DNA from: an uncultured Desulfobacteraceae bacterium
GTDB taxonomy: Bacteria; Desulfobacterota; DSM-4660; Desulfatiglandales; HGW-15
NCBI GenBank assembly: GCA_964418945.1
Contig: CAYQNR010000001.1
Span: forward strand, 13,414-77,413
Direction: 5' to 3'
DNA length: 64,000 bases
The notes beneath the pieces are model-generated. The model was given only the letters and a program-made list of their open reading frames with translations. It was not told the origin of the DNA and made no database searches. Every line of letters starts with the position of its first letter. The first letter of the stretch is position 1. This document shows positions 4,900 to 63,946 of the stretch, piece by piece. A program made the translations under genes and the position numbers.

Positions 4900-5219
4900 G
4901 GTTTATCCGGTCACGGCGGTTCTTTTCAAGACGACATCTATAGTATCCCGTGGACGTGGTCTTATTTTCAAGGGTTTGGCAAACCTTTTCCTGGTGGCAA
5001 AGGCATATTCTGCCAGGGGTTCTGGTGGAGCAAACCCTTCAAACAAGCCCACTGCAGGCCTGGGGTGGAATTCTTTTTGAGATGTCGTTTTTCCAAGAAC
5101 CACCGTGACTTCAGGTCTTAATACTTTTCGAAATGATATCTAAATATTTTGGGCCATTAAGGTACTTATAATAAGCCTTAATCTTTTACTTCTTTGCGTA
5201 CTCATTAACCGGATGAAAC
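4900..5219 (+). mobile_element. MITE-like composite element, copy A (variant cargo module)
   Basis: The right arm and TIR (GCGTACTCATTAACCGGATGAAAC) match the other copies. The left end GGTTTATCCGGT is interrupted by a ~200-bp module with imperfect 29-nt inverted arms at 4910-4938 and 5081-5109. Confidence 0.7.
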
Positions 5220-5244
5220 TTTATTTATTAATCACACATCAGCT

Positions 5245-10434: not shown

Positions 10435-10779
10435 TTTGATCCGGTTAATAAGTACGTAAACAAATAAACGATTAAACCTTATCCGCCTTCGCAGAAGACC
10501 ACGGGTTTACCCGTGGGGCTCCATTATAAGTACCTTAATGGCCCATGGGGCTCTCTTTTAAGCACCGAAAACATTAACAGCATGCGAATTACGTAAGGTG
10601 CCACCCAGGCGGGCGGAATACTTATGAGATATTAGAAAATTCTCGAGTCCGGCCAGATCCGGAAAAGGCTACCCGCCCGCCTCGTCTGGTTTTGTGCGCG
10701 GTCAGTGCCCATAAACGAGTTCGCCGCTTAAAGAGAGCCCCATGGGCCATATAGCGCAAAATATCTTAGATATCATTAT
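10435..10779 (-). mobile_element. MITE-like composite element, copy B (inverted; one TIR missing)
   Basis: One TIR is TTTGATCCGGTTAATAAGTACG. It carries the hairpin segment CCACGGGTTTACCCGTGG and the inner module at 10540-10748 bounded by GGCCCATGGGG/CCCCATGGGCC. Homology on the far arm stops at about 10779 with no TIR. Confidence 0.75.
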
Positions 10780-10960
10780 AATTTTATCACAAAACCAAAA
10801 AAGGTGCAAATATTATTGTGGCTTGTTTAGCCTCCATCCGGTCTGGAGCAACCATGGGATTACATGAGCAATAGATCCCATTCCGTGGAACTGTCAAGTT
10901 CGAAAGGAAAGTACGATTACAGATGGTGCCCTCATGGTGGACTAGGGTGCTATTTATAAA

Positions 10961-19104: not shown

Positions 19105-19435
19105 AGTTAATCCGGTTAATGAGTACGCTAGTTAATGATATCTAAATACTTTGCTCTATATGGCCCATGGGGTTCTCTTTTAAAAGGCGAACTCGCTTAT
19201 GTGCAATGACCCTGCACAAAACAAGACGAGGCGGGCGGGTAGCCTTTTCCAGACTTGGCCGGACTCGAGAATTTTGTGTTATCTCATAAGTATTCCGCCC
19301 GCCTGGGTGGCACCTTACGTAGTTAGCATGCTGTTAATATCTTCGCCGCTTAAAAGAGAACCCCATGGGCCATTAAGGTACCTGTAATAAGGTTTGATCT
19401 TTTTCTTCTTTACGTACTCATTAACCGGATGAACC
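19105..19435 (+). mobile_element. MITE-like composite element, copy C
   Basis: TIRs AGTTAATCCGGTTAATGAGTACG ... CGTACTCATTAACCGGATGAACC. Inner module at 19162-19371. No hairpin segment in the right arm. Confidence 0.8.
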
Positions 19436-21558: not shown

Positions 21559-22118
21559 GCTTCATCCGGTTAATGAGTGCCCTAGTTAATGATATCTACA
21601 TGTTCTGCGCTATATGGCCCATGGGGTTCTCTTTTAAGCGGCGAACTCGTTTATGTGCAATGACCCTGCACAAAACAAGACGAGGCGGGTGGGTAGCCTT
21701 TTCTAGACTTGGCCCCACTCGAGGATGTTCTATTATCTCACAAGTATTCCGCCCGCCTGGGTGTCACCTTACGTAATTAGCATGCTGTTAATATTTTCGC
21801 CGTGTAAGAGAGAGCTTCATGGGCCATTAAGGTACTTATAATGGAGCCCCACGGGTAAACCCGTGGTCCCATTAAAATACCCGTCTTTCCATCCTCCGTA
21901 GCCCGTCCTCCGCAGTGGCCTGCTACGGAGGATGGACAGGCTACTGCGGAGGACGGGCGCCTCCGGCTACGACGCGGTTATCCGCCTGAACTGGGGGCGA
22001 CATCGCGCCGTAGCAAGCCATCATTTGCGCATTCAACCACGGGCAAGCACGTTGTCTTCTGCGAAGGCGGATAAGGTTTAATCCTTTACTTCTTTACCTA
22101 CTCATTAACCGGATGAAA
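21559..22118 (+). mobile_element. MITE-like composite element, copy D (fullest form, 560 bp)
   Basis: Contains TIRs, the inner module at 21616-21825, hairpin CCACGGGTAAACCCGTGG at 21849-21866, a 170-bp third module at 21867-22036, and a second hairpin CCACGGGCAAGCACGTTG at 22037-22054. Confidence 0.85.
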
Positions 22119-32751: not shown

Positions 32752-33114
32752 GGTTCATCCGGTTAATGAGTAGGTAAAGAAGTAAAGGATTAAACCTTAT
32801 CCGCCTTCGCAGAAGACAACGTGCTTGCCCGTGGTTGAATGCGCAAATGATGGCTTGCTACGGCGCGATGTCGCCCCCAGTTCAGGCGGATAACCGCGTC
32901 GTAGCCGGAGGCGCCCGTCCTCCGCAGTAGCCTGTCCATCCTCCGTAGCAGGCCACTGCGGAGGACGGGCTACGGAGGATGGAAAGACGGGTATTTTAAT
33001 GGGACCACGGGTTTACCCGTGAGGCTCCATTATAAGTACCTTAATGGCCCATGGGCCATATAGCGCAAAATACTTAGATATCATTAACTAGCGTACTCAT
33101 TAACCGGATGAAAC
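32752..33114 (-). mobile_element. MITE-like composite element, copy E (inverted; central site empty)
   Basis: By eye, one half is identical to the reverse complement of copy D, including the 170-bp third module at 32835-33004. The central palindrome GGCCCATGGGCC (33046-33057) is uninterrupted. Confidence 0.85.
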
Positions 33115-43343: not shown

Positions 43344-43716
43344 GGTTCATCCGCTTAATCAGTACGGTAGCTAATTATATCTAGATACTTTGCGTTACAT
43401 GGGCCATGGGGTTCTCTTTTAAGCGGCGAACTCGTTTATGTGCTATGACCCTGCACAAAACAAGACGAGGCGGGCGGGTAGCCTTTTCCAGACTTGGCCG
43501 GACTCGAGAATTTTGTGTTATCTCATAAGTATTCCGCCCGCCTGGGTGGCACCTTACGTAGTTAGCATGCTGTTAATGTTTTCGTCCCTTAAAAGAGAGC
43601 CCCATGGGCCATTAAGCTACTTATAATGGAGCCCCACGGGCAAGCACGTGGTCTTCTGCGAAGGAGGATAAGGTTTAATCTTTTACTTCTTTACGTACTC
43701 CTTAACCGGATGAAAC
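43344..43716 (+). mobile_element. MITE-like composite element, copy F
   Basis: Degenerate TIRs GGTTCATCCGCTTAATCAGTACG ... CGTACTCCTTAACCGGATGAAAC. Inner module at 43401-43610. The right arm carries hairpin CCACGGGCAAGCACGTGG. Confidence 0.8.
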
Positions 43717-47279: not shown

Positions 47280-47601
47280 GGTTCATCCGGTTAATGAGTA
47301 CGGAAAGGACTTTATATAAATACTTGGTTTGGCCCATGGGGTTCTCTTTGCGACAGGCGAACTTGTTTATGTGCAAGGCGCGGGCAATAAGCCGGACTAG
47401 GCGGGCGGCGGGCTATTGGAATAATATACCAGGACCGGAAGTCCGGCTATCATCTCAGAAGTTACCCGCCCGCCTGGCAGGCACCTTATGCTATTATCTT
47501 GCTTCTAACCTTTTCGCCGCTGCAAAGAGAGCCCCATGGGCCGAATATCACCAATCTTGCTATAGTATTATCATTAAGTGTGCTCATTCGCCGGATGATC
47601 C
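47280..47601 (+). mobile_element. MITE-like composite element, copy G (subfamily 2, filled)
   Basis: The arms are nearly identical to copy H. A variant inner module at 47331-47542 is inserted in GGCCCATGGGCC. The element fills most of the glyS-metV divergent intergenic region. Confidence 0.85.
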
Positions 47602-53060: not shown

Positions 53061-53182
53061 GGTTCATCAGGTTAATGAGTACGGAAAGGATTTTATATAA
53101 ATACTTGGTTCGGCCCATGGGCCGAACATCACCAATCTTGCTATAGTTTTATCATTAAGCGCACTCATTTGCCGGATGATCC
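53061..53182 (+). mobile_element. MITE-like element, copy H (minimal 122-bp form, empty central site)
   Basis: GGTTCATCAGGTTAATGAGTACGG ... GCGCACTCATTTGCCGGATGATCC around the 20-bp palindrome GTTCGGCCCATGGGCCGAAC. It lies between hypF and hypC. Confidence 0.85.
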
Positions 53183-60731: not shown

Positions 60732-60992
60732 CCATCACCCGGGGGCAGGTACCCGTGGGGAAACGACCCTTGGGGGAGTAAAGAGAAAAAATAGGGGCGA
60801 TGTTGTTCGTCGCAATGATGTATTGTTTACGGATCTGCAACTGAGCACTGACTTGTTAGAATCATGGATAATAGAGGGGGCATGCCTGGCGTCCTACCCG
60901 CCCCCGTATTGAGCTCATGGGGATACCGCTGCAAAAAGCCTTCATTTGTGGAGAGATGAACAGTCGAAAATATGGGGGTCGCGTCTGTACTC

Positions 60993-61067
60993 CTGACAAA
61001 TTCCGTATTAATCATCTATCTACAAGTAGTACTAAATTAAGATACGTGAAGAATGGAGACCTGACCC
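60993..61067 (+). promoter_or_regulatory. Conserved promoter/operator-like block, copy 1
   Basis: About 75 nt, with roughly 80% identity to 63872-63946. It reads CTGACA-N18-TATCTA and then the shared block CAAGTAGTACTAAAT...CGTGAAGAATG. Confidence 0.45.
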
Positions 61068-63468: not shown

Positions 63469-63871
63469 GATTTTAACCCCCTATCCAATGTTTTACAATT
63501 GAGAGGTCTCAGGTGCGCTCTCACGCAAAACAGCCTCCTCCAAAATCACGAGCGGGCCTTTATCTGAGCCTAGCCTGTTTTCAACCGCAGAGCCCGCTCA
63601 GGAAAAACTGTGACAATAACTTAAACCTGGCCTAACAAGTTAACGGCCCATAGCTAACATTTGTTGGGTGAGGTAAGGTGAGGAGATGAGAGCTCCCTTT
63701 TTTGGGGCCTAAGTATAGGTGATTTGGTCCTGCGTGTCAATGATAAAGTCGACGCATGATGTGGTAATCCTCCATTTTGCCTGGAAATCAGATTGATGAG
63801 TGGAGGGCATTCAGAGGTGGGGAAGGTACATCTGGGGCCATATCTTTGTGAAAAGGATGACAGTTTCACTC

Positions 63872-63946
63872 TTGACAGATTTCAGATTAATGATTTATCT
63901 ACAAGTAGTACTAAATAAAAATGCGTGAAGAATGAAGATCTGAGCC
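63872..63946 (+). promoter_or_regulatory. Conserved promoter/operator-like block, copy 2
   Basis: TTGACA-N18-TATCTA plus the same downstream block as 60993-61067. It points toward sequence beyond the window end. Confidence 0.45.

Follow-up and report, generated by a model that had tools for sequence, protein, structure and literature searches.

A 200-bp hairpin module at the central palindrome of ISL3-type MITEs in an uncultured Desulfobacterales-related lineage

The window analysed here, a stretch of 64,000 nucleotides from an uncultured Desulfobacteraceae bacterium, contains a family of short intergenic repeats in a filled and an empty form, which differ by a precise, palindrome-bounded block of 200 bp. 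The carrier, or outer element, is a non-autonomous MITE derivative of an ISL3-family insertion sequence, and the block, or inner module, is a long non-coding hairpin. Comparison of many copies shows that the inner module today spreads only as a passenger, the whole composite being moved by an ISL3-type transposase; the data do not show the inner module jumping alone. The explanation that we favour, with somewhat better than even confidence, is that an ISL3-type MITE anciently acquired a hairpin passenger and that recurrent precise loss or conversion makes the empty forms. This ISL3-derived MITE family is present at very high density in the Desulfobacterales-related lineage to which the window belongs, and some of its copies lie within operons.

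The two forms are represented by copies G and H, both on the + strand and both with type II arms. Copy G (47280-47601, 322 bp) is filled and copy H (53061-53182, 122 bp), which lies between hypF and hypC, is empty, the gap between their lengths being exactly 200 bp. The extra sequence of G consists of 192 bp of unique sequence (47341-47532, + strand), corresponding to an inner module of subtype b, and of a second copy of the 8-bp palindrome CCCATGGG. The left copy of this palindrome (47333-47340) lies at the base of the inner hairpin and the right copy at 47533-47540. On the left side of G, GGCCCATGGG (47331-47340) is followed by GTTCTC, the module starting with GTTCTCTTTGCG; on the right side, the module ends in GAGAGC (GCAAAGAGAGC) and is followed by CCCATGGGCC (47533-47542). 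TTGGTTT stands before GGCCCATGGG and GAATATC after CCCATGGGCC. In H, the sequence reads TTGGTTC, then the palindrome GGCCCATGGGCC (53112-53123) at the dyad centre, then GAACATC. The arms of the two copies are 95% and 91% identical (window repeat families D6 and D10), and the repeats that flank H, AATTAATA at its left end and CATTAATA at its right end, agree at 7 of 8 positions. H is empty in 15/15 near-identical contigs and also in a divergent lineage, at 94% identity. With at most one mismatch, the window contains GGCCCATGGGCC 6 times where 0.22 occurrences are expected; 0/100 shuffles reached 6. The filled/empty pair proposed in the first-pass annotation was borne out by this precise block; the insert of about 196 bp that it described is real, its size being slightly off as the exact difference is 200 bp.

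Copy G of the window combines two filled type II copies into a chimera (47293-47601, with flank to about 47640). Judged by sequence match, a copy located between glyQ and glyS (locus L001) accounts for its left flank and left end and the hoxH-DUF5981 copy (L198) for its right part and right flank, and the crossover lies within 47293-47397. The glyQ-glyS copy shows a perfect AAAAAGAT duplication in L001 and L103, and the hoxH-DUF5981 copy a GAATTACC duplication in L198 and L200. The join is either a mis-assembly across a 316-bp repeat or the trace of a genuine recombination event in which the DNA between two copies was deleted or rearranged. Since both parents of G carry the same junctions, the comparison of G with H stands. 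Repeats of this kind, of 120-560 bp, break and mis-join metagenome assemblies, as at G. Outer elements were also observed inside normally co-transcribed gene pairs, namely glyQ-glyS, which is the true context of G (L001/L103), and hypF-hypC in the case of H; a 320-nt hairpin within such gene pairs could have an effect on transcript processing or polarity.

In total, the window holds eight outer elements (8 copies in 64 kb) and five inner modules, at 10550-10738 (- strand), 19172-19361, 21626-21815, 43411-43600 and 47341-47532. Copy D (21559-22118, + strand) has type I arms and is filled with an inner module of subtype a (21626-21815); its right arm carries a further nested module of about 230 bp. 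The left junction of D reads GGCCCATGGGG (21616-21626) and the right one is mutated, with TTCATGGGCC at 21816-21825. At the orthologous site of divergent lineage L112 the element is absent and the site is precisely empty. The closest relative of D is copy E (32752-33113, - strand), also with type I arms, which is empty (palindrome at 33046-33057) and carries the same large extra module. As had been claimed, the D/E pair thus presents the junction of G and H in the other arm subfamily, with the right junction of D mutated. The other filled type I copies are a basic form of about 330 bp at 19105-19434 (+ strand; 325 bp strictly from terminal repeat to terminal repeat; inner module 19172-19361), a copy with a 42-bp extra module at 43344-43715 (+ strand; inner module 43411-43600), and a copy with a small extra module at 10436-10800 (- strand), in which the inner module (10550-10738) is reversed and the far terminal repeat is degenerate. 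A degenerate type I copy at 5137-5218 (repeat family D3) has lost its centre, ATATTTTG being joined to GGCCATTAAGG, and has one recognisable terminal repeat.

The nested module of about 230 bp in the type I right arm lies at 21843-22070 and 32815-33020 of the window and is inserted at TTATAAT^AAGG. It holds a long GC-rich hairpin (CCTCCGTAGC...GCTACGGAGG), and its weak microRNA-like Rfam matches are those of a generic hairpin. Its 42-bp short form (GGAGCCCCACGGGCAAGCACGTGG...) was found at 43630-43672 and 10478-10520. An unrelated pair of 79-nt direct repeats (family D9; 60989-61067 and 63868-63946) is 84% identical, its two members lying 2.9 kb apart.

The 22-bp ends, the 8-bp duplications and the match to a transposase gene end together identify the outer element as an ISL3-type MITE. 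The 22-bp terminal inverted repeat GGTTCATCCGGTTAATGAGTACG is present at both ends of about 50 copies. Most copies are flanked by target duplications, and clear AT-rich duplications of 8 bp, such as TTTAGTTT, AGATATTT, TTTCTTAT and AAAAAGAT, were observed at about 50 sites. Repeats of 8 bp are made by ISL3-like elements (PMC8615141). The fetched loci represent 54 distinct sites; empty forms measure 92-127 bp, and the outer element has no coding capacity. In the divergent lineage, precise empty sites were found for whole elements, glyQ and glyS being 18 bp apart and both D and E being absent. In a contig from a viral collection, a transposase ORF ending in KRQAYGFRDMEYFKLRLYHLHTQRYSLTG and a stop codon runs into GTACTCATTAACCGGATGAACC, so that the terminal repeat is the end of the ISL3 gene, with the stop codon inside. 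Six further contigs begin with the same transposase gene end and then diverge; in all, GGTTCATCCGGTTAATGAGTACG closes ISL3 transposase ORFs in L206-L212 (positions 1-130 of L207-L212 and 1-98 of L206). The peptide of the ORF end aligns with the final residues of Pfam DDE_Tnp_ISL3 (E 0.007), and all of its database relatives that have a Pfam annotation, which are most of them, have PF01610, a few being without annotation. A search for a full-length autonomous ISL3 partner in protein databases gave only C-terminal fragments of at most 179 aa at contig ends, none of them from the lineage of the window. This position at contig ends implies that the autonomous IS is present in high copy number and is never bridged by assemblies of short reads. 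The composite had no BLAST match in plasmid and phage collections, and the exact pattern of the inner module occurred 0 times in GTDB species genomes and 0 times in viral contigs. The nearest GTDB species genome by GlyS is a Desulfobacteraceae MAG at 66% identity.

In order to characterise the junctions of the inner module, about 50 further distinct copies were collected from related metagenome contigs. The CCATGG-centred boundary predicted in the first-pass annotation was recovered in every copy found, point mutations aside. Among 74 unique sequences, the left junction reads GGCCCATGGGG in 41 and the right junction CCCCATGGGCC in 55, the rest being accounted for by point changes. The length of the module is binary: 117/120 terminus pairs are 200-210 bp apart, three have small extra insertions and none is shorter. 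Solitary inner modules were sought and none was found, as every full profile match has an outer terminal repeat at most 400 bp away. These contexts, although always outer elements, span four unrelated arm types. Each subtype is confined to one arm type, a to type I and b to type II (33 and 28 unique sequences, with 0 cross-combinations), while both arm types offer the identical 12-bp site. The orientation of the inner module relative to the arms is constant in all copies. The values for ends, arms and inner module are 0.86, 0.885 and 0.89 for type I and about 0.91, 0.95 and 0.96 for type II, corresponding to equal decay, and every composite is flanked by a separate 8-bp target duplication that the outer element produced. 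Equal decay and composite-level duplications show that copy number arises from transposition of the composite and not from transposition of the inner module on its own.

These results bear on the earlier claim that the filled/empty pairs are direct evidence for a separate mobile unit. The members of each pair, G/H and D/E, occupy different loci and are thus paralogues, not alleles of one site. The inner module has CCCATGGG on both sides, and the duplication could be anything from 0 to 8 bp; a palindromic 8-mer within a hairpin stem necessarily appears as a direct repeat at the hairpin base, the classical substrate of deletion by slippage, so that the duplicated CCCATGGG alone is no proof of insertion. 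A filled/empty polymorphism was also sought, and none was observed at the 54 clustered sites, either in near-identical contigs or in the divergent lineage, few divergent strains being sampled. The claim of direct evidence was thus too strong in view of the paralogous loci, the lack of solitary copies and the coupling of subtypes to arms; in its favour, one module with one junction recurs in four arm backbones that are unrelated to each other.

The state of the central site has switched within a subfamily. For the type I subfamily marked by the additional nested module of about 230 bp, the tree is ((D filled, E empty),(L009 filled, L045 empty)); D and E are united by 6 informative sites, versus 1 that groups copies by state. 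Because D and E are sisters and L009 and L045 fall on the opposite side, at least two precise gains or losses must have taken place in this subfamily. The direction of each switch cannot be read from any pair. The arm phylogeny is star-like, and the empty copies are consensus-like and have no shared diagnostic substitution by which polarity could be set. The inner module of D, dated against the D/E split, carries 14/202 differences from the consensus, 4-6 of them unique, which fits both directions. Empty H predates the split of the two lineages, and filled G and D were inserted after it. Micro-deletions were found at the centre of L058 (GGCCCATATAG) and of L045 and L069 (AATGGACCATATAG), and central deletions are also present in L067, in L047 and in the window copy at about 5137-5231. 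Such micro-deletions at the same centre indicate that it is deletion-prone, which favours loss. The annotation had itself named deletion between the CCCATGGG copies as an alternative origin of the empty forms; this is mechanistically easy and agrees with the central micro-deletions, although the pairs are silent on its direction. Slippage loss or conversion between copies explains the observed states as well as insertion does.

A deeper comparison points to an ancient acquisition of the module. Arm types I, II and III and the arm of Desulfobacteraceae MAG L115 have no significant mutual similarity, with marginal, mosaic matches only; type III arms are those of L018 and L041 (...AATCTTGA|CCCATGGGG...), and one of the four backbones comes from another genus. 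The terminal repeats, the junction and the first 90 or so nucleotides of the inner module are conserved across the four arm types, at 74-79% identity. Judged from these sequences, it is likely that arms and inner module were once acquired independently of each other and that the module had some past mobility. As in-place copies evolve neutrally, conservation across carriers would come either from transfer of the module from one carrier to another or from selection that acts on transposing master copies.

The interior of the outer element was found to turn over. At three orthologous outer sites (RR-FtsH, MlaA-ACAD and MltA-LpxC), the window lineage has the inner module, and module X or other interiors stand in its place in a divergent lineage with about 84-92% identity over aligned intergenic DNA. 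Copies of the X type retain the ...GC|CCCATGRGCCATATAG junction (GC|CCCATGRGCC). Such replacement at orthologous sites shows that recombination, or nested insertion followed by deletion, is frequent among copies. The family thus displays a hierarchy of nested modules at fixed internal positions, with interiors that turn over at orthologous sites. Module X has the ends GAGGGTTCAAGGGGTCAAGG...CCCTTGAATCCTTGAATCC and adjoins GTAAAGAAGTAAA; module Y contains ...GGTCACGGCTGTTCTTTTCAAGACGACATCT.... These further module families, which take the place of the inner module at the three orthologous sites of the divergent lineage, were seen at fixed positions in L112 (580-934, 9312-9826 and 17870-18230) and L110 (2700-3040 and 4500-4650), as well as in L029, L053, L065 and L066.

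The inner module is a non-coding imperfect hairpin of about 200 nt, with a folding energy of -115.7 kcal/mol (z -8.6; z -7.5 for the other strand). Three stems are nearly invariant, namely the 14-bp termini, GGCGAA/TTCGCC and AGGCGGGCGG/CCGCCCGCCT, with variable sequence between them. The terminal stem, (C)ATGGGGYTCTCTTT / AAAGAGARCCCCAT(G), is nearly invariant among 27 diverse copies and provides the module with terminal inverted repeats of its own. Secondary insertions of 23-40 bp, for example CCGGTGAACCGGGATCTTCGT beside the GGCGGGCGG stem, were observed in three inner modules (L023 2309-2657, L013 243-488 and L049 86-315). In L048 (4613-5171) and L066 (5588-6728), the 5' half of the inner module through GGCGGGCGG is fused to ATGAACC..., the end of the outer terminal repeat, which suggests a rearrangement via CGG, a microhomology that inner stem and terminal repeat have in common.

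Taken together, these observations can be read in several ways. In the explanation that we favour, one or a few insertions at the central palindrome would probably have formed the ancient step, which would account for the presence of the module in unrelated arm backbones. The module, sitting at the exact dyad centre with CCCATGGG on both sides, is today carried in composites transposed by an ISL3-type transposase. In present genomes, the most likely direction would be from filled to empty. Plausible routes are strand slippage, with mispairing of the two 8-bp repeats that lie at the foot of the long hairpin, and homologous conversion between copies with common arms. Against this stand the silence of every pair on direction and the age of H: an old empty copy with later filled G and D also fits an empty state first and insertion later. 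Moreover, sloppy deletion might leave intermediates, and the length is binary (117/120 at 200-210 bp); no single site was seen to be polymorphic for the two states, and the autonomous ISL3 element of the organism was not recovered. Some of these points speak for a module that is still independently mobile, a non-autonomous element that inserts site-specifically into GGCCCATGGGCC or a cruciform tip and is in effect the parasite of a parasite. A recombinase or transposase would then act in trans, and the empty copies would be unoccupied targets. Such mobility, which we regard as unlikely and mention with some reserve, would fit the exact relation of empty site and insert with its duplicated palindromic core, the 14-bp terminal inverted repeats, the binary length, the recurrence of module and junction in four unrelated arm backbones and two genera, the state switched at least twice within one subfamily, and the old empty H alongside younger filled copies. 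It also has a precedent in IS1111, which targets the REP palindrome inside QMITE2 of Coxiella (PMC5896051). However, 0 of about 50 distinct copies lie outside the outer element, the subtypes never cross-combine despite an identical 12-bp target, a single orientation is kept despite the palindromic target, inner module and arms are equally old in each copy, a polymorphic site was not found and no candidate enzyme was identified. In a more specific form, which we consider doubtful, a hyperparasitic mobile hairpin would recognise the GGCCCATGGGCC cruciform or hairpin tip of ISL3-type MITEs by means of a structure- or site-specific recombinase and then hitch-hike; if true, this would explain its cross-genus conservation in otherwise unrelated carriers.

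Exchange between copies offers a different route to the same patterns. Interiors and states could be swapped by homologous recombination, or by gap repair after excision, through shared ends and arms, resulting in concerted evolution. The other interiors at RR-FtsH, MlaA-ACAD and MltA-LpxC in the lineage of about 84-92% identity are in line with this, the coupling of subtype to arms is a prediction of homology-dependent exchange, and copy G of the window joins two copies as a recombinant or a chimera. On the other hand, the join in G may be an assembly artefact, interior replacement also fits nested insertion then deletion with the X-type junction retained, and a conversion tract was not mapped; as a general explanation, exchange appears rather improbable to us. 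Very much less credible is the view that the host keeps the inner module as a functional structured RNA or a regulatory hairpin, for which the outer element is a mere carrier. The strong folding (z -8.6 and -7.5), the three invariant stems, the conservation of the proximal 90 nt across genera and the copies within operons (glyQ-glyS, hypF-hypC) could be taken in this sense. The equally good folding of both strands speaks against it, as does the scarcity of compensatory change, seen in only 1/39 predicted pairs. Orientation relative to flanking genes shows no bias (8 same, 10 opposite), and in-place copies decay at the rate of the arms. The whole window gave nothing at the Rfam gathering score and the module no Rfam match at E below 0.1, scans of G and D at lax E-values returning only chance-level or generic-hairpin matches. 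Nothing points to a host-level RNA function. Should the inner hairpin prove to be independently mobile, it would give bacteria a clear-cut example of a non-autonomous element that has specialised on another such element; should it not, it offers a natural system in which to study hairpin-promoted precise deletion.

The composite belongs to the known kind of modular or nested bacterial MITEs. Like ISL3 insertion sequences and their MITE derivatives, the outer element has a 22-bp repeat that is the end of the transposase gene and 8-bp AT-rich duplications, and it is short, non-coding, multi-copy and intergenic; unlike them, it has a conserved hairpin of 200 bp in most copies, and several further nested modules, each type of insert at a fixed place within the element. 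ERIC elements carry insertions of about 70 bp at fixed internal sites, Correia elements of Neisseria have a form with an internal deletion of about 50 bp, and pneumococcal BOX elements are modular. These are likewise imperfect-palindrome intergenic repeats with long and short forms that differ by a discrete internal block. They share no sequence relation with the present family, in which the block is much larger than the carrier arms, is bounded by a duplicated palindrome and resides in an ISL3-type MITE. The transposase-independent precise excision of Tn5 and Tn10 and the deletion of long palindromes proceed by replication slippage, which restores one copy of the repeat. Short direct repeats at the base of a long inverted repeat are common to those cases and to the inner module, although here slippage would be deduced from the anatomy and from neighbouring micro-deletions. 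The closest mechanistic precedent is IS1111, which inserts in the REP palindrome of QMITE2 in Coxiella burnetii (PMC5896051). More broadly, IS110/IS1111 elements target REPs, attC sites or transposon ends. In Coxiella, the incomer is an autonomous IS with a recombinase gene of its own and is also polymorphic between strains, whereas the inner module is a non-coding sequence of 200 bp that is never solitary and for which no polymorphic site was seen; in both systems, a palindrome within one repeat is the landing site of a second element.
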